A stretch of DNA of 63,686 nucleotides, the filler included. It is 8 parts of 8 records of this genome, joined end to end, with 100 filler letters (N's around TTAATTAATTAA, not from the genome) between each part and the next. Parts side by side here need not be neighbours in the genome. Positions count along the whole stretch, not along the records: positions 31,835 to 38,583 come from SRR31156797_12218; 7 more parts are not named here. The stretch is one strand, 5' to 3'. Positions 16,015-50,523 of the stretch are shown here, piece by piece (within the stretch, counting starts at the first letter, position 1; each line of letters opens with the position of its first letter). A program made the position numbers and the translations under genes. Under the pieces are notes generated by a model. That model did not search any database. It was not told the DNA's origin and saw only the letters and a list, made by a program, of their open reading frames with translations.

Positions 16015-16116
16015 ANNNNNNNNNNNNNNNNNNNNNNNNNNNNNNNNNNNNNNNNNNNNTTAATTAATTAANNNNNNNNNNNNNNNNNNNNNNNNNNNNN
16101 NNNNNNNNNNNNNNNG

Positions 16117-31722: not shown

Positions 31723-31834
31723 ATCGTTAAATATNNNNNNNNNNNNNNNNNNNNNNNNNNNNNNNNNNNNNNNNNNNNTTAATTAATTAANNNNNNNNNN
31801 NNNNNNNNNNNNNNNNNNNNNNNNNNNNNNNNNN

Positions 31835-32494
31835 AGAGGAGATACTCATATTGACTGATTTTGCTATATCATCTATCAAAAAAGTTTCGTGGAGATTTTG
31901 ATTTATAAAAGAGATTGCTTTTGATATTTTATATGAGTTGCTTTCTATGAAAGCTAGTTGTTGTAACTCTATATTTTGGTTTGATACTAGGAGTCGATAG
32001 AGTATCTCTTTTAGATATATCTTTGATAATACCTCTATATCATTTGGTCTATCATTCAATTTTACTAGTCTTAAAATAGAACCTTTTAAATCATCGTCTA
32101 AATAGTACGTTGAAGCAGAAAAGTTTGTAGTATCTACTTTATTCAAACTCATAGAAAACTCCTCAAGAGCCTGAAAAATTTGCTCTTGGGTAAAGAGTAT
32201 TTGTATAGATAGAAAAGGCTCTTTTGGACTTGCTTGGATAATCTTCCCTGATACTGCTAAAAAAGTTGAAGAGACAAAATATGATGAACTGTCATATTCA
32301 AAGATTTTATCTCCTATGAATACAGTTTTTGTGCCTTGCAAGATTATAAAGAGTGATGGCTCATAGACAGTATGAAGTACCTCTCCACTACTTAGGGATT
32401 TAAAAATTTTGACAAAAGGAATATTTGTTCCATTTATCCCTTCTTCCAAAGGTATCTTTTGAACTATATTTTTAAATTCATCTAATATATTCAT
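31835..32494 (-). CDS. AraC-family regulator with AraC_N (YqhC-like) domain, 3' truncated
   Basis: VYEPSLFIILQGTK, EILYRLL, IAKSVNMSISS. Confidence 0.9.
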
Positions 32495-32506
32495 GTAAAA
32501 ATTCCT

Positions 32507-32517
32507 TGCCTATTTCT
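32507..32517 (-). promoter_or_regulatory. Putative AraC-binding motif upstream of araC
   Basis: AGAAATAGGCA, similar to AGGATTAGGCA upstream of the SDR gene. Confidence 0.4.
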
Positions 32518-32537
32518 ATATTTTATGATATATTTCT

Positions 32538-33281
32538 TTAAATAAACCCACCATTTACTTTTATAGTCTGTCCTGTAATCCAATGTGCTTTTTCACTAAC
32601 TAAAAGTTCAATCACATCTGCTATATCTTCGCTCTCTCCTAGCCGTCCAAAAGAGTTCATTTTGCTTAACATCTCAATTTGCTGTTCAGTTTTTCCTTTC
32701 ATAAATAGCTCTGTTTTCACAGGTCCTGGAGCAATTGCATTTATAGTTATCCCTTTTTCTCCAAACTCTTTTGCTAGTTGTCTAGTGATTTGTTCAACAG
32801 CGCCTTTTGAAGCAGCATAAACGCTATATGCTGGAAACATTGCACTTGTAACAGAAGTTGAAAAGTTTATAATTCTTCCATTGTTTTCCATATGTTTCAT
32901 AGCTTGTTGACAGGCAAAAAAAGTCCCTTTTACATTGACTGCAATTTGTCTATCAAACTCTTCTTCGCTAACATTTGCTATTGGATGATTTATCATTAAT
33001 CCTGCATTATTAATAAGAATATTTACTTTTCCATAGATTTTAATTGTTTGCTCAAAAAGTTTTTCTAGTGCATTAATTTTAGATATATCTGCTTGTAAAG
33101 CTAGAGCTTTTCCACCATCAAAAATAATTTCATCTACTATTTCTTGGGCTTCTTTTTCATTTGAATTATAATTTATAACTGTAGTTATTCCCAATCTTCC
33201 TAATTGAATAACAACTTGCTTGCCTATTCCTTTTGATGCACCAGTCACTATGGCTACCTTACTATCTATTTGTTGACTCAT
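32538..33281 (-). CDS. Short-chain dehydrogenase/reductase
   Basis: TGASKGIG, NNAG, YAASK, IAPGP. Confidence 0.95.
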   Translation of the reverse strand: MSQQIDSKVAIVTGASKGIGKQVVIQLGRLGITTVINYNSNEKEAQEIVDEIIFDGGKALALQADISKINALEKLFEQTIKIYGKVNILINNAGLMINHPIANVSEEEFDRQIAVNVKGTFFACQQAMKHMENNGRIINFSTSVTSAMFPAYSVYAASKGAVEQITRQLAKEFGEKGITINAIAPGPVKTELFMKGKTEQQIEMLSKMNSFGRLGESEDIADVIELLVSEKAHWITGQTIKVNGGFI

Positions 33282-33358
33282 AATATTTTCCTTTTTATTT
33301 TATAGAAAAAGTATATAAGAAAAATTTCTTTTTAACCAGTTAATTTATAGATAATTTA

Positions 33359-33369
33359 TGCCTAATCCT
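33359..33369 (-). promoter_or_regulatory. Putative AraC-binding motif upstream of the SDR gene
   Basis: AGGATTAGGCA; second similar copy at 32507-32517. Confidence 0.4.
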
Positions 33370-33407
33370 ATTTTATTTTAAATCTTTTATTATAAAGTAT
33401 CTTGTAC

Positions 33408-33464
33408 ATATAACGTTTGACTACACTGATAGATTTATCTATTCAGTGCTAGGATTTGTTATAG
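33408..33464 (-). mobile_element. attC: attC site (57 bp) closing cassette 2
   Basis: CTATAAC-5-CTA[G]CACTG[A]ATAGAT-AA-ATCTAT CAGTG TAG-6-GTTATAT; the HAD stop TAA lies inside R''; CTATAAC is the reverse complement of the GTTATAG that opens the cassette. Confidence 0.88.
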
Positions 33465-34151
33465 AATTTTCTTTCTTAAAAATAACTCTAATTCGTCATA
33501 ATCATTAAAATATTCTTGAGGTTCAAAATTATCTAATTTACTATTAATTAAAAAAGAGTTTTTTGTTTTAGCTAACATGGGCAAGTCGTTACTTCCATCA
33601 CCAAAAACATATAAGTCTTTTTTACTATACTTTAATTCTGTTAATAAAATATCAATGGCAGTCCCTTTATCAAAGCCTTTTGGAGTAAAATCTACACTAT
33701 CTTTATGATAATATGTGTTTATATTTTCATGTTCAAAACTTTGAGCAAAAAGATGAATTTTCTTAATATCATTTATATTAATTGGAAACACTGTTAGATT
33801 TACATCATTTGGCTGAAACCATATCGTTTGTTTAAATTCTTGTGAATAGTCTTTTCTAATCTTAAAAAAGACTTCCTGTATAATTCCAGATACTTCTATT
33901 TTGTAATATTTTTTAGGAGGGAATGTACTATTATACATTATTGTCCCACCATTTTCACCAATTACCATACAATTGTCTAGTCCTAATTGACGTATGAATC
34001 CAGCTATATACCCAAATGGTTTTCCAGATGCTAACACTACTTGATGTTGTTTTGAAATATTTTGCAATGTATTAACAAGACTGTTGTTCACTGGTTTATT
34101 AATATCACAAAGTGTTCCATCTATATCGAATATTAATAATTTTTTAGTCAT
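33459..34151 (-). CDS. HAD-superfamily IIB (Cof-like) phosphatase
   Basis: FDIDGT, LASGK, GENGG, DKG, FGDGSNDLPM. Confidence 0.9.
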   Translation of the reverse strand: MTKKLLIFDIDGTLCDINKPVNNSLVNTLQNISKQHQVVLASGKPFGYIAGFIRQLGLDNCMVIGENGGTIMYNSTFPPKKYYKIEVSGIIQEVFFKIRKDYSQEFKQTIWFQPNDVNLTVFPININDIKKIHLFAQSFEHENINTYYHKDSVDFTPKGFDKGTAIDILLTELKYSKKDLYVFGDGSNDLPMLAKTKNSFLINSKLDNFEPQEYFNDYDELELFLRKKIL

Positions 34152-34160
34152 ATACTTCCC

Positions 34161-34811
34161 CTATATATCTTTATTTAAAAGATATTTAATTCCTAATGAA
34201 GCTTTTGAAGTTAATACATTTGTATCAATTTCATCTAAAATATTATCAAGACTAAATATTTTAACTTCATCTTTTTGACAATTTAAAATAGCTAGATCTA
34301 AATCATCTTTTAAAACATACACACATAAACCTATCATAACAACTGTTTCTCTGTGTTGGTTATCTATTGTACTGATATTATTTTCTATAGCAAATCCTGG
34401 AATTTGTTCAAGACTAACAATTTTTGAATTGAAAAATTGTTTATTTTTGATTTTTTTATAAATAGAATGATTTTCAAATTGAACAGATCCAAAAACATCA
34501 TACTTATTGTTTTCAACATTTGTATTAGGTTTATCTTTTTGTCTATCATATACAATAACCCTTTGCCCATCTGTAAATATAGCAAAGGTAGAAAACCTAG
34601 TATTATTTATCATTACCCTATGAAAGTTTTCTTTTATCTCATTTTCTTCATTTTGAACTAACCATTGTGGAGAAATTTGTTCTTCTAAAACTTTTTTGTA
34701 AAATATCTCTAAATCTAATACCGTATTGGGTATAAAATCATTCTCCAATGTTAAACAATTTTGAAAAGTTGTTTTTGTTGATTGTGAATCAATAATATTT
34801 TGTTTTTTCAT
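34161..34811 (-). CDS. Hypothetical protein, possibly degenerate Nudix fold
   Basis: AGAGG RBS; FAIFTDGQRVIVYDR and VMIGLCVYV resemble Nudix strands; no Nudix box. Confidence 0.55.
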   Translation of the reverse strand: MKKQNIIDSQSTKTTFQNCLTLENDFIPNTVLDLEIFYKKVLEEQISPQWLVQNEENEIKENFHRVMINNTRFSTFAIFTDGQRVIVYDRQKDKPNTNVENNKYDVFGSVQFENHSIYKKIKNKQFFNSKIVSLEQIPGFAIENNISTIDNQHRETVVMIGLCVYVLKDDLDLAILNCQKDEVKIFSLDNILDEIDTNVLTSKASLGIKYLLNKDI

Positions 34812-34827
34812 TTTCTACCTCTAGCTT

Positions 34828-37152
34828 TTATGTATTTTTTGTTGTTACTCTACCATGTTGAATATGAGAAATAAGTAAACCACCATCTTGATGATTTAGT
34901 TTCTCTAGATATTCTTTTTTATTATCATTAAACATTTTAGAGTAATATTTATCCTTAAAATAGAATAATATTACTTTTAAAATATCTAATTTAAATTCTT
35001 CTAATTTTAAAATCTTAATTCCTTCTTTATTTAAATCATTGAATCTTTTATCTATCATGTATTGAAATTTATCTTTATTTATATTTGTTTCATTAACAAT
35101 ATTAAAATTATAATCTTTTAACTTTTCTATAATATCTTCTTTATTATCAGTGATATTATCAAGTCTAATTTCAATATTTTCATATAATGAATTTGGTATA
35201 TCTTTATTATCAAATATATCTTTTAAGTTTTTATAAAAGAATACAGTAGAAGTTGTTCCTATCTCTTTATATATTTGTTTGTTATCAAATAATGTACTAA
35301 AATTTTCACTAAACAATCCATTAGAAAAGCTTTTCTTTTCCCTTTTCAGGAATTCAGCAATAAACATATTTGTACCCAACGCGGAAGCGATTGCAGAAAA
35401 TCCATAAATCGATACTACATTGATATTTTTATCATCGTTTTTTATTTTAAATGATAAAAATTTAGCATCACTATTTACACTATTTCCTTTATCATCATTT
35501 ACTCTTTGATCTAAAAGAAAATTCCATCCAGATACAGGTTGATTAACTCCCATAAAAAAATTAAATGCACTTTGATGATTTTCTCTTTTATCTAAGTCTT
35601 GCTTATGATCAAAATCAAAATAATTATCCATAAATCCAAATAATCGTTCATCTTTAAATCTTAATCGATGCTTGTTAATTAAATGAGCTAACGCTCTATT
35701 ATGTTCTGCCCCACCTATAGTTAAAACATCTATGTTTTTTTCTTCATCGTTAATTAAACATGATGGTAATTCAATATTGCTATTAGGATTATTTTTATCA
35801 TCAACTGGTAATGACAACATCATTTTAATAGGAATTTTTATATATACTTTGTTAGGCTTAACTGATTCAGATATATATCTTACTAGTTTTTGACGTGAAT
35901 CCTCATTTATTGTAAACTTATAAATATTCTCAATTTCACTTTTTAAATCTGCTTTAAGAACAAAATCTAATGTTTTACTACTGTTATTTACTCTATTGGT
36001 ATATTTAAAAAAATCATCATTATACAAATCATCTACTTTTTTATCTAACATAATACCATTTGAAAAATATATTTTTGCATTGATAAAAGATTTATCATTT
36101 TCTTTCTTACATACAATTTCATTTTTTGTTGAAGTTGACATTTCAAGCAATTCTTTTAAAAAATGAAATTCGTCAGAATTTTCTATTTCTGATATATTTA
36201 TAATATCTTTTTCTTCTGATAAATTAAAAATTGTATATAAAACTTGACTCAATAAACTAATACCAAAAAGATTTCTATCACTAAGAGTATTTATTACATC
36301 TACTTTTTTTATTTTCTCATTATCATTAAGAATTAAATCTGCTAAAGATTGTGCTACTACTTTATCTTGTTTAGATTCTTTATCAAACTCAATAGATTCA
36401 TCTTTTATAATTCTAGAAAATAAAATATCATAGATATGTAAGTCAAAAGTGTCTTTAATACTTTTAAGCCAATTTTCATTTAATTTACTTTTATCAACTT
36501 CTAACACTACATGATCAATAAATTTATTATCAAAAAAAGGTCTATCACAATATGAATGTTCTAAATTAAAATTATTTTTCTGTGAAACTTTTGATAATAT
36601 TTGAATACCAGTTGAGTCTGATTGATTTGATAAATATAAACTAAAGAAGTCTCTGCTTTTATATTTCTTAATTTTACCTTCATATTTTTTGATCTCATCA
36701 TATAGGTAGGCGTGATTTTTAACTAAATCATCATCATTTTTAATGATAAGATCAAAACCTTTATCAATATAAGTATTAATAATTTTTGAAGGTTTCAATA
36801 GTTCCGTAACTTTACTTTTTAATTCATCTGAAATAGTATTAGTAATAATTTTATCTAAAATTTTATTGTCAAAAAAAGAACCACTTAAAAAGTCATCTTT
36901 AATATCTGTAAGTATCGGTAACAACTCTTCAATATTTGCATCTGTTATTTTACCTGTTCCTTTTTTCAAAAATTCTCTAATCTTTAATAATAATTTATTA
37001 CGTTTTCCTAATACAATCTCTAATTCATCTTGCAAATCATTAAACAAAAGATTAAAATCTTTATCATAAGCAATATTTTTTGTAATATTATTCATCCTAT
37101 TTTTATCAATTGATAAACCGGTCATATAAACTAAATGTTCTTTTTTATCCAT
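34828..37152 (-). CDS. Hypothetical 774-aa protein
   Basis: Long ORF in very AT-rich DNA with AAGGA RBS; no recognisable family; motif DVLTIGGAEHNRAL. Confidence 0.75.
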   Translation of the reverse strand: MDKKEHLVYMTGLSIDKNRMNNITKNIAYDKDFNLLFNDLQDELEIVLGKRNKLLLKIREFLKKGTGKITDANIEELLPILTDIKDDFLSGSFFDNKILDKIITNTISDELKSKVTELLKPSKIINTYIDKGFDLIIKNDDDLVKNHAYLYDEIKKYEGKIKKYKSRDFFSLYLSNQSDSTGIQILSKVSQKNNFNLEHSYCDRPFFDNKFIDHVVLEVDKSKLNENWLKSIKDTFDLHIYDILFSRIIKDESIEFDKESKQDKVVAQSLADLILNDNEKIKKVDVINTLSDRNLFGISLLSQVLYTIFNLSEEKDIINISEIENSDEFHFLKELLEMSTSTKNEIVCKKENDKSFINAKIYFSNGIMLDKKVDDLYNDDFFKYTNRVNNSSKTLDFVLKADLKSEIENIYKFTINEDSRQKLVRYISESVKPNKVYIKIPIKMMLSLPVDDKNNPNSNIELPSCLINDEEKNIDVLTIGGAEHNRALAHLINKHRLRFKDERLFGFMDNYFDFDHKQDLDKRENHQSAFNFFMGVNQPVSGWNFLLDQRVNDDKGNSVNSDAKFLSFKIKNDDKNINVVSIYGFSAIASALGTNMFIAEFLKREKKSFSNGLFSENFSTLFDNKQIYKEIGTTSTVFFYKNLKDIFDNKDIPNSLYENIEIRLDNITDNKEDIIEKLKDYNFNIVNETNINKDKFQYMIDKRFNDLNKEGIKILKLEEFKLDILKVILFYFKDKYYSKMFNDNKKEYLEKLNHQDGGLLISHIQHGRVTTKNT

Positions 37153-37175
37153 TTTATTTCCTTTTATTTGAAGTG

Positions 37176-37192
37176 AATAAATTATATCAATT
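37176..37192 (-). promoter_or_regulatory. Extended -10 promoter inside cassette 2
   Basis: TGATATAAT (TGnTATAAT) about 30 nt upstream of the ATG at 37152. Confidence 0.55.
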
Positions 37193-37220
37193 TTGTGTCA
37201 CAGTTTACGTCATAAAAAAT

Positions 37221-37967
37221 TCAAACATTATTTATCTCACATAAAAGCTGTTTTAGTGCAGGAACAGTATTGACATTTTTTAATTCATCTATAGTTTTTA
37301 ATCCAGTATCAGTATGATACTCAGGGTTATTTAACTCTATTTCACTTTCATGCAAGTTTGTAAAAAGAGGTATTCTAAACTCTAGCGTATTTACTGAAGA
37401 AGAGAAATAAAACCAAGCCTTTGATTTTTCTATTAACTTACCTTCTAAATATAGTTCAACATTATATGTTTTTAAAGGATATTTATTACATTTAAAAGAT
37501 GTTTTATAAAACTCTGTATGATTTGAGTTTTTAATAATATCTTTTGATATATCAGGATATATTTGTTTGCTATTTTTTAGTACTTCTATCTCTTCAATAG
37601 TCTCTTTTATTCCTGTTTCAAAAACAGCTCTATCACATCTTCCAGCAGGAGTAGTCCAAAAACCAGGATCAAACTGAGTATCTAAACTTCTTTGAGTGAC
37701 AGCTAATTTATCATTAATAAATAAAAAACTTCCACTTGAAATTAGAACATTTTTCATATTATTTGTATTTGTTTGTTTTATATTAGCTAGTTGAGAGATT
37801 TTTATCAAGTCTAAATCTATATTATCAAAGGTAAAAAGATTATTTTGGTTTACATATATTTTTATAGTATCATGTTTGATTATAACTTCTGAAGCATACC
37901 AGAAAACTTGATCATTATATTTTTTATCAATTTTATTATTTAATAATGACTTTACATTTAAAGACAT
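37221..37967 (-). CDS. Nudix hydrolase (248 aa)
   Basis: ATG at 37967 after AGGAG; LAVTQRS..DPGFWTTPAGRCD..ETGIKETIEEI, a shortened Nudix box. Confidence 0.8.
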   Translation of the reverse strand: MSLNVKSLLNNKIDKKYNDQVFWYASEVIIKHDTIKIYVNQNNLFTFDNIDLDLIKISQLANIKQTNTNNMKNVLISSGSFLFINDKLAVTQRSLDTQFDPGFWTTPAGRCDRAVFETGIKETIEEIEVLKNSKQIYPDISKDIIKNSNHTEFYKTSFKCNKYPLKTYNVELYLEGKLIEKSKAWFYFSSSVNTLEFRIPLFTNLHESEIELNNPEYHTDTGLKTIDELKNVNTVPALKQLLCEINNV

Positions 37968-37980
37968 GTTGCTCCTATTT

Positions 37981-38050
37981 CTATAACGTTTGTCGTGAGC
38001 AATAATTTTCCCGCTAGGGTAAATTATTGGTCTCCTCGTACTTGTTAGGT
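37981..38050 (-). mobile_element. attC: attC site (70 bp) closing cassette 1
   Basis: ACCTAAC-5-CGA[G]GAG..CAATAATTT.CCC-TAGC-GGG.AAATTATTG CTCACG-6-GTTATAG; ACCTAAC is the reverse complement of GTTAGGT at 38558-38552. Confidence 0.88.
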
Positions 38051-38557
38051 GTTTATTACCCATAAATTAATATATCTCTTAATTCATCTAGTGTTTCTGG
38101 ATGTTGTTTCATTTTTTGTATGATTTGATCAACAGGTGCATTATAAGTTTTCCAAAAACTAGATGGAACATGTAGAATAATTGATGTATTTACATCTTCT
38201 TTATTTTCTACTACCATAAATGATTTATAAAATATAGGTTTTTTATCACTATCTTTAAATAGTTTTAAATAAAAATTTTTTTTATCTCCAAATGACTGAC
38301 TTTTATACAAATCCATTACATCGTGATAATCTTTATGGCAATCAAGACAATATGTTTTTAAATGCTTTTCATCATATTCCCAAGGTTTTTTGCCATTAAT
38401 ATAAATTTCATGATGAACATGTAGTGTTTTATCTTCAGCTTGACATCCTAAACATTTCCAATTATCTCGTTCCATAATTTCTAAACGTTTTCTCTGCCAT
38501 TTAGGGTGTTTTAATAATTCTTTATAATTCATATTCTTCTTTCAGTTTTTCACCTAA
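37987..38557 (-). mobile_element. Integron gene cassette 1 (571 bp, HNH gene)
   Basis: G|TTAGGT about 20 nt before the ATG; attC starts 5 nt after the stop. Confidence 0.85.
38056..38532 (-). CDS. HNH endonuclease-like protein with zinc-binding CxxC pairs
   Basis: WQRKRLEIMERDNWKCLGC, LHVHH, PWEY, YCLDCHKDYH. Confidence 0.85.
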   Translation of the reverse strand: MNYKELLKHPKWQRKRLEIMERDNWKCLGCQAEDKTLHVHHEIYINGKKPWEYDEKHLKTYCLDCHKDYHDVMDLYKSQSFGDKKNFYLKLFKDSDKKPIFYKSFMVVENKEDVNTSIILHVPSSFWKTYNAPVDQIIQKMKQHPETLDELRDILIYG

Positions 38558-38583: not shown

Positions 38584-38820
38584 NNNNNNNNNNNNNNNNN
38601 NNNNNNNNNNNNNNNNNNNNNNNNNNNTTAATTAATTAANNNNNNNNNNNNNNNNNNNNNNNNNNNNNNNNNNNNNNNNNNNNAATACTCTGTTGTCGGT
38701 TTCTCTTTCCCAAAGAGAAACCTATAGTAAAGATATCGGGTTAAAACATTTTTGGGGCAAGCATCACGCTTGTAATTTTGAACATAATAATTTTGTTCAT
38801 AAAAAAAGGAGAAAAAATAA

Positions 38821-44089: not shown

Positions 44090-44190
44090 NNNNNNNNNNN
44101 NNNNNNNNNNNNNNNNNNNNNNNNNNNNNNNNNTTAATTAATTAANNNNNNNNNNNNNNNNNNNNNNNNNNNNNNNNNNNNNNNNNNNNA

Positions 44191-50411: not shown

Positions 50412-50523
50412 NNNNNNNNNNNNNNNNNNNNNNNNNNNNNNNNNNNNNNNNNNNNTTAATTAATTAANNNNNNNNNNNNNNNNNNNNNNNNNNNNNNNNN
50501 NNNNNNNNNNNCGGTGGCCTGAC

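Follow-up and report, generated by a model that had tools for sequence, protein, structure and literature searches.

A four-gene integron-type cassette with a conserved core of Nudix, unnamed-family and HAD proteins, a candidate nucleotide-directed conflict module

The window analysed here, a stretch of 63,686 nucleotides with filler included, contains a 6,748-bp contig (31836-38583) on which every gene lies on the minus strand and which carries a four-gene unit built like an integron gene cassette (33414-37986, 4,573 bp, GC content ~0.23). In gene order, this unit comprises a putative 248-aa divergent Nudix hydrolase (gene 1, 37221-37967), a 774-aa protein of a small unnamed family (gene 2, 34828-37152), a 216-aa Nudix-fold protein lacking the catalytic Nudix box (gene 3, 34161-34811) and a 230-aa predicted HAD-IIB phosphatase of the Cof type (gene 4, 33459-34151). 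The genes are separated by gaps of 68, 16 and 9 bp, the first of which is a spacer (37153-37220) with neither a hairpin nor AAC/GTT cores. The start of gene 1 was placed at the ATG at 37967, preceded by AGGAG, because the longer open reading frame (ORF) of 280 aa that begins at 38063 crosses an attC site and overlaps the HNH-like gene of the upstream cassette. Five linkers of the six-frame-stop type, N45-TTAATTAATTAA-N45, occur in the window (16016-16115, 31734-31835, 38584-38683, 44090-44189 and 50412-50511), along which the GC content runs from 0.58 to 0.23. The window is therefore a pseudomolecule of at least six separate contigs, and genes that a linker separates are non-neighbours, which may stem from different organisms. 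The whole four-gene cassette sits on one contig, physical linkage ends at the limits of that contig, and no RNA run is listed as containing it.

An attC site is an imperfect inverted repeat that lies 3' of the gene or genes of a cassette and consists of outer R''/R' cores (...AAC / GTT...), an inner stem and an unpaired spacer. As an integron cassette derives from a circle that opens at the attC crossover, its initial bases after G|TT complement its own R'' core. Read on the gene strand, the four-gene unit opens with TTATAGAA (37986 downwards), right after AAACG, and closes with TTCTATAAC (33466-33458), a core that overlaps the stop codon of gene 4 and is followed by a hairpin and an AAACG ending at 33414. 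TTATAGAA is complementary to TTCTATAAC over 9 nt, counting the G, so that the opening core is the reverse complement of the unit's own closing core. The neighbouring HNH cassette repeats this logic, its start core on the R' side (GTTAGGTG, 38558-38551) pairing with its closing core CACCTAAC. The complete gene-strand order is GTTAGGTG, a ribosome-binding site, the HNH gene, CACCTAAC, a hairpin, AAAC, GTTATAGAA (37987 onwards), a second ribosome-binding site, genes 1-4, TTCTATAAC, a hairpin, AAAC and GTTATAT. Two attC-like sites are delimited in this way, both on the minus strand: site 1 (37981-38051), with R'' CACCTAAC (38051-38044), an inner stem, AAAC and R' GTTATAG (37987-37981), and site 2 (33408-33466), with R'' TTCTATAAC, a bulged inner stem, AAAC and R' GTTATAT (33414-33408). 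Crossovers are predicted at 37987/37986 in site 1 and at 33414/33413 in site 2, and cutting at G|TT gives exact spans of 33414-37986 for the four-gene cassette and of 37987-38557 (571 bp) for the HNH cassette. The original prediction, made by a model from the letters of the window, had given the same limits for the unit, and its description of four co-oriented genes with gaps of the sizes above, enclosed by an opening core that is the reverse complement of the core at the closing attC, is borne out.

The same arrangement might be produced by an ordinary island, with terminators or unrelated repeats for hairpins and with cores that complement each other by coincidence. Complementarity of GTT cores over plain 8-mers is indeed about equally frequent in shuffled sequence (16 pairs observed, mean of 14.5 in shuffles) and was therefore replaced by a chain test, in which a start core, its complement, a good hairpin and then the GTT that opens the next such unit had to follow one another. 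This chained pattern was found in only 1 of 300 dinucleotide shuffles, and ten bases, AAACGTTATA, are identical at both cassette junctions, both of which speak against coincidence. When all AAC...GTT pairs lying 35-125 nt apart on the contig were ranked as hairpins (186 per strand), site 2 came first on both strands, while site 1 came third on the gene strand and second on the plus strand. As single-stranded DNA, both sites folded better than their shuffles (z -4.5/-6.1 for site 1 and -3.3/-3.8 for site 2); for the bottom strand of site 2, the prediction places two bulged bases in the 3' arm. The hairpins have no T-tails and no minus-strand terminator was called, which argues against a terminator function; the promoter/terminator scan as a whole was uninformative (58 matches, 51 expected). 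The original prediction saw no internal attC, and this holds: the 68-bp spacer between genes 1 and 2 folds no better than shuffles (z +0.56/-0.04), and the best internal AAC..GTT hairpin (34628-34559, -0.226 per nt) was rejected as an attC site, as it lies within the coding sequence of gene 3 and has no core complementarity.

The recurrence of these elements in other sequencing runs was followed in contig data, disregarding joints with sides of 20-27 letters at 85% likeness. Run X1 contains the contig in full and may be where it comes from. In run X8, a hydrothermal vent metagenome, many contigs carry 64-76-nt matches to 37982-38057 with differing flanks; besides 4 listed contigs, a further 5, 6 and 17 contigs have loose ends at 37983, 37985 and 38047, respectively, with a flank consensus agreement of only 0.53-0.55. 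Since the flanks agree so poorly, site 1 is a repeated element with different neighbours. The summed contig depth in X8 of the 65-nt element at 37982-38057 is ~4,600, compared with ~10 for the flanking genes; this attC family is highly repeated in the run, which suggests large cassette arrays in the vent community. For site 2, two contigs of run X6 (1,912 and 857 nt) match 33409-33461, and run X2 supplies a near-identical 2,366-nt contig that follows 31965-33412 with 8 differences before it diverges at 33412/33413, no more than 1-2 nt away from the predicted crossover (33413|33414). As the homology stops at the crossover, the lower cassette boundary is a real recombination junction; in X2 the cassette itself is covered by short pieces only, which in contig data is no proof of its absence. 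Both hairpins, then, behave as attC-type repeats that recur elsewhere with homology ending at the predicted cores.

Neither intI nor attI is visible on the contig, which stops 25 nt past the start of the HNH cassette, and most of the related loci described below lack attC-like flanks; both points are what an ordinary island would show, and with no integrase in sight the evidence for an integron context is that of the attC sites. Given the chained signature, the identical junctions and the break of the X2 contig at the crossover, we regard such an island as highly improbable. The region 33414-37986 is one integron-type gene cassette within a stretch of two arrayed cassettes. Integron cassettes have been described as units that 'generally consist of a single ORF', and integrons have been reported in Campylobacterota, in the portion of that article that was accessible (PMC8618304); four genes in one cassette are thus unusual.

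The identities proposed for the four genes in the original prediction, a Nudix protein, a protein without assignment, a Nudix-like protein and a HAD phosphatase, were upheld. The canonical Nudix box is GX5EX7REUXEEXGU. In gene 1 it takes the form PAGRCDRAVFETGIKETIEEIEV, in which the ExxEE glutamates are retained: the segment KETIEEIEV keeps E16, E19 and E20, while G...E at the front of the box has moved (GRCD) and another residue stands for the G at its end. All 11 aligned relatives share KETxEE unchanged. Of 11 family members, seven match Pfam NUDIX at E<=0.01, and at least two members exceed its gathering score (21.7 and 24.6 bits, against 21.1). A profile of the family retrieved a NadM-Nudix structure (2qjt, E 8.6e-4) and an Ap4A hydrolase (E 1.1e-3) from the PDB, and the best PDB sequence match of the gene 1 Nudix part is an ADP-ribose pyrophosphatase domain; no domain was assigned to the N-terminal ~90 aa. 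The invariance of KETxEE makes catalysis likely, though the box is atypical, and gene 1 is probably an active, divergent Nudix pyrophosphohydrolase. Its sole PADLOC match, to HEC-02A (E 1e-4, 19.7 bits, over ~70 aa), was judged too weak for that identity to be adopted.

The four motifs of HAD phosphatases are DxD, S/T, K and GDxxxD. All four can be read in gene 4, as FDIDGT, SGK, the lysine in PKGFDKG and GDGSND. The protein matches Pfam Hydrolase_3 (E 5.8e-29, 102 bits against a cut-off of 20.9) and NCBIfam HAD-SF-IIB (81.8 bits against 41.8), while every equivalog model stays below its cut-off. Its prediction as a HAD-IIB phosphatase with intact motifs is solid.

Gene 2 has no match in Pfam, NCBIfam or PADLOC. 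Its structure was predicted with high confidence overall, residues ~40-160 forming a variable helical insert of low confidence, and the Foldseek comparison proposed in the original prediction left the protein as unassigned as before, with no match in PDB or BFVD at E<=1e-3. A profile search of PDB sequences gave 0 matches at E<=10, the best score against Atlas was 0.81, which offered no lead, and hhalign found no relation of gene 2 to gene 1 or to the proteins that combine TIR with gene 3. No tblastn match to gene 2 was obtained in phage records or plasmids, and viral contigs likewise yielded none. The family itself is small, with 36 clusters among 5.8 billion and 66 representatives among 1.84 billion proteins, the latter library being without annotation, and its members are 650-900 aa long. 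None of the 36 clusters carries a Pfam domain, and the sole source name is 'hypothetical protein'. Invariant residues fall in the motifs TGLSxDK (N-terminus), QSD, GGxEHNR, GFxDN and YGFSA. This clustering of invariant polar residues in a few motifs suggests that gene 2 may be an enzyme or contain a nucleotide-binding site.

In total 24 loci with gene 2 were collected, five of them from a set of one genome per species (185,579 species) and 19 from metagenomes. In all 16 loci that include the 5' end of gene 2, gene 1 immediately precedes it on the same strand; in locus L007 a 182-aa ORF is present between the two. Sequence downstream of gene 2 is available for 22 loci, of which 19 have a HAD-IIB gene (Hydrolase_3) there in the same orientation, adjoining gene 2 in 17 and following inserted genes in two (L006 and L012). 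As for the rest, the sequence of L010 and L018 stops after an inserted LRR or TPR gene, and the HAD-like piece found in L007 is on the other strand. The HAD association persists even where the HAD protein is only 20-27% identical to that of the cassette (L004, L005, L017 and L024). In L020, genes 1 and 2 form a single 897-aa ORF without a stop between them (L020:1446-4139), and an 895-aa protein, P0060, has the same architecture, its gene 1 part being 41% identical (E 7e-51); a further candidate, P0049, turned out not to be such a fusion. These fusions are the best evidence that the Nudix protein and gene 2 act together, and they argue for a physical association of the two. The original prediction had taken all four genes as one unit. 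Genes 1, 2 and 4 are strongly supported as a conserved functional unit by synteny and fusion, so far as this can be read from gene order, while gene 3 fell away from it as a variable add-on.

The fused protein of L020 differs from the cassette version in that its variable insert contains two strongly hydrophobic stretches resembling membrane helices. An attC-like hairpin (AACAAG...GTTAGC) lies upstream of the same locus, the only attC-like flank among the related loci besides the cassette itself. The hosts named for the loci are Nautiliales, Campylobacterales, Acetofilamentum (Bacteroidota), and Gammaproteobacteria and Thiotrichaceae metagenome-assembled genomes (MAGs), and the GC content of the loci ranges from 0.23 to 0.53. 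Gene 2 was found in one of 401 sampled Campylobacterota genomes, and that one is the centre genome itself. The module is rare, patchy and spread across phyla, and the cassette carries it as a self-contained, horizontally moving unit.

Between gene 2 and the HAD gene, the related loci show that different genes occupy one slot. Gene 3 is the occupant in the cassette, and gave no tblastn match in any of the 24 gene 2 loci; it is outside the core. In its place, L006 has a 120-aa ORF and a 924-aa TPR protein, L018 a 123-aa ORF and a TPR protein, L010 an LRR gene, and L012 an LRR-Roc-COR protein of 1,047 aa that includes a fused ATPase (PADLOC PtuA match, 1.1e-38). A 306-aa protein with a TIR_2 match of 24 bits (gathering score 28) and two opposite-strand genes follow in L012, and in L022 a TPR gene lies 3' of the HAD gene. 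Because the flanks of L006 and L012 are identical, one and the same site carries different inserts. In both of these loci a direct repeat of ~60 bp, made up of a promoter-like stretch and the first codons of the downstream host gene, flanks the module on both sides (L006: 1-139 and 7067-7230; L012: 1-139 and 9138-9300). L012 may be a copy in decay: two frames (140-292, then 312-872) share its gene 1 homologue, and its gene 2 homologue is short (616 aa).

Gene 3 has a Nudix fold that resembles the ligand-binding NrtR, and hhalign found no relation between it and gene 1. After DVFGSVQFEN it reads HSIYKKIKNKQFF, a glutamate-free stretch where a catalytic protein would have the REUXEE helix, and this stretch is kept in all 4 and all 11 aligned relatives; gene 3 is probably a non-catalytic ligand binder with a Nudix fold. 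It has only 3 relatives of similar length. Among the longer ones, 8 of 9 carry an N-terminal Pfam TIR or TIR_2 domain, and one is named at source as a TIR domain protein, by which the gene 3 of the cassette is a TIR-less form of a TIR-Nudix-like protein. Fusions of TIR with gene 3 were absent from the 5 genomes with gene 2, from the 401 genomes of the class of genome G005 and from viral contigs.

These properties of gene 3 also suit a function in clearing signals or in counter-defence, in which the Nudix and HAD enzymes would degrade an immune nucleotide, such as an ADP-ribose (ADPR) derivative made by a TIR protein or a cyclic oligonucleotide, and thereby set a threshold for a TIR effector or blunt the immunity of a competitor, with gene 3 as a sponge. 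A Nudix fold without a catalytic box that resembles a ligand binder, relatives fused to TIR domains, and a Nudix enzyme whose best structural sequence match is an ADP-ribose pyrophosphatase domain would all fit such a role. We consider it very unlikely, as the cassette has no TIR domain, most core loci have no TIR gene at all, and homologues are absent from the phage records, plasmids and viral contigs searched and from BFVD.

No described system was found to correspond to the module. Against PADLOC-DB v2.0.0 the core proteins match no system model, an outcome that the original prediction had named as supporting novelty: the only hit was the weak one of gene 1 to HEC-02A, with none for genes 2-4, and no ThsA/ThsB-type match was found for the cassette proteins. 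In the full-text literature on integron cassettes, on Nudix, HAD and TIR defence and on conflict systems, this gene combination was not found described in the titles, abstract openings and passages looked at, and supplementary gene lists may hold relatives, and a full-text search for TIR-Nudix gave no match. In the parts seen of two comparative genomic surveys of conflict systems, Nudix and HAD are mentioned only in other architectures (PMC7159879, PMC9503650).

Several known systems invite comparison. Nudix-encoding integron cassettes have been reported as phage-protective (bioRxiv 10.1101/2024.07.02.601719; 10.64898/2026.03.17.712381; as far as the portions available of these preprints go). 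Judging from those portions, the BRiCs of mobile integrons and the chromosomal cassettes of Vibrio, with the NUDIX examples brc167 and a dimeric hydrolase of V. vulnificus, resemble the present cassette in being attC-bounded and promoter-poor, in having genes that face the attC and in carrying Nudix cargo. They differ in holding one or two genes, whereas here four genes on 4.6 kb include a 774-aa partner and a HAD phosphatase; brc167 was compared by its description. In the accessible part of a third preprint, PUA-Cal-HAD is presented as a sensor-controlled phosphoesterase with a HAD protein that acts as a sink for deoxynucleoside triphosphates (dNTPs), and a MazG-like pyrophosphatase can replace its calcineurin domain (bioRxiv 10.64898/2026.01.15.699771). 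On that account the likeness lies in a phosphoesterase and a separate HAD protein forming a two-enzyme nucleotide sink under a sensor, an organisation that the cassette may share. In contrast to PUA-Cal-HAD, the cassette has a Nudix protein as its pyrophosphatase, a large partner whose fold matches nothing known and a HAD protein of the IIB/Cof type; PUA and calcineurin models had no match in the four cassette proteins at Pfam E<=10, and the HAD protein is all that the two share. Compared with the Thoeris-type TIR systems acting on nicotinamide adenine dinucleotide (NAD+) and ADPR, and with NrtR sensors, the cassette lacks a TIR domain and its conserved core consists of the Nudix protein, the large unassigned protein and the HAD phosphatase.

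The reading that we consider best, and to which we give about an even chance, is that the module may be a conflict or anti-phage system directed at nucleotides or NAD. Defence is made plausible by the immune-type genes in the slot, the TIR domains in gene 3 relatives, the phage resistance reported for Nudix cassettes and the precedent of a phosphoesterase with a HAD protein as dNTP sink. In the mechanism that we infer, from the substrate and the sequence of reactions to the part played by gene 2 and defence itself, the target would be a nucleoside-diphosphate-linked metabolite, e.g., NAD+/ADPR, or else (d)NTPs. Gene 2 would sense, activate or run some first reaction; the Nudix protein would then split the pyrophosphate bond and the HAD phosphatase would strip off the leftover phosphate, leaving a product that could not be recycled. 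Stepwise degradation by a Nudix and then a HAD enzyme, with the large protein as sensor or scaffold, had been suggested in the original prediction. A sensor or effector would be tied to this core by the slot gene, whose product is a Nudix-like binder in the cassette and a TIR, TPR or LRR-Roc-COR-ATPase protein in relatives. As a target, NAD+/ADPR is slightly favoured over (d)NTPs because of the TIR association of gene 3, its NrtR-like fold and the sugar-phosphatase type of the HAD protein (ADPR to AMP and ribose-5-phosphate). A more far-reaching version, in which gene 2 would be a new enzyme or sensor fold held in a fixed complex with the Nudix protein, at the core of an unrecognised immune system that targets NAD+/ADPR or nucleotides and has interchangeable sensors or effectors (TIR, TPR, ROCO-ATPase, Nudix-like binder), is put forward tentatively, as a rather doubtful possibility.

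Several observations weigh against a conflict system, in addition to the integrase missing from the contig. Taken by itself, gene 1 falls short of Pfam NUDIX (E 0.24, 11.8 bits, cut-off 21.1). Genes 2 and 3 have no PADLOC family at E<=1, and gene 4 likewise has none; the TIR match in L012 is below threshold. In the wider surroundings of the chromosomal relatives, housekeeping genes predominate: L015 has DsbD/ApbE/thioredoxin genes and a two-component system, L019 type II secretion and L005 PrkA/SpoVR. Thus, of the homologue check suggested in the original prediction, one half came out as hoped, the core genes staying together as counted above, and the other did not, the surroundings not looking like defence islands. 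Genes of conflict type are nevertheless seen in places: a FitA/PIN pair directly upstream in L004, a mad3/LmuB-like ATPase ~4 kb downstream in L002 and, in L019, a gene after the HAD gene with weak CARF/PD-(D/E)xK-type PADLOC matches.

HAD-IIB enzymes of the Cof type usually remove phosphate from sugar phosphates or cofactors, an activity that would fit a metabolic pathway just as well and is a further point against a conflict function. Primary metabolism has routes in which a Nudix step precedes a phosphatase, e.g., dihydroneopterin triphosphate pyrophosphatase followed by a phosphatase; there, too, the Nudix enzyme removes pyrophosphate and the phosphatase the last phosphate. The four genes might accordingly be a metabolic or salvage operon that is merely cassette-borne, with gene 2 as an enzyme, the Nudix protein supplying or trimming a nucleotide-linked precursor and the HAD-IIB protein releasing the product, comparable to the synthase/phosphatase pairs of compatible solutes. 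We hold this to be possible though rather unlikely: conservation with the core extends to no transporter, kinase or other pathway gene, the inserted genes are of TPR, LRR-Roc-COR-PtuA-like ATPase and TIR types and not enzymes, and the distribution is extremely sparse and crosses phyla. The Nudix and phosphatase genes of primary metabolism are not known to occur with a 774-aa protein of this kind, to be cassette-borne or to have immune-type genes inserted among them. On balance, the module would for now be best filed as a variant of the nucleotide-directed conflict systems.

The remaining genes of the contig flank the four-gene cassette. Upstream, the HNH-like ORF (158 aa, 38056-38532, minus strand) is the sole gene of its 571-bp cassette, in which the attC logic matches that of the four-gene cassette; its matches to the NCBIfam IscB-HNH model (E 2.3e-5) and to ZorE in PADLOC (E 4.7e-4) are both weak, and Pfam HNH is reached at E 0.27. 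Downstream, a short-chain dehydrogenase (SDR, 32538-33281) and an AraC-N-type regulator cut by the contig end (within 31836-33281) lie on the minus strand. As this segment is kept in run X2 with other sequence upstream of it, 31836-33281 may be a chromosomal flank rather than the next cassette. A short-chain dehydrogenase is also found in L002, a Campylobacterales MAG, where its coding sequence and the start of the gene 1 homologue have 11 nt in common (L002:8167-9183); the SDR of the contig lies at the opposite end of the module and is 28% identical to it, and the presence of such a gene beside both modules is probably a coincidence.

Cassettes usually hold single genes, and a four-gene operon cassette shows that integrons can shuttle multi-component systems. 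Since gene 2 folds confidently and yet has no relatives in Pfam, PADLOC, the PDB or the viral structure library, it likely represents a new biochemical activity. If the module does serve in defence, the nucleotide-depletion systems would gain a member built on a Nudix protein, and with it a small, portable test case of 4.6 kb with clear catalytic residues.

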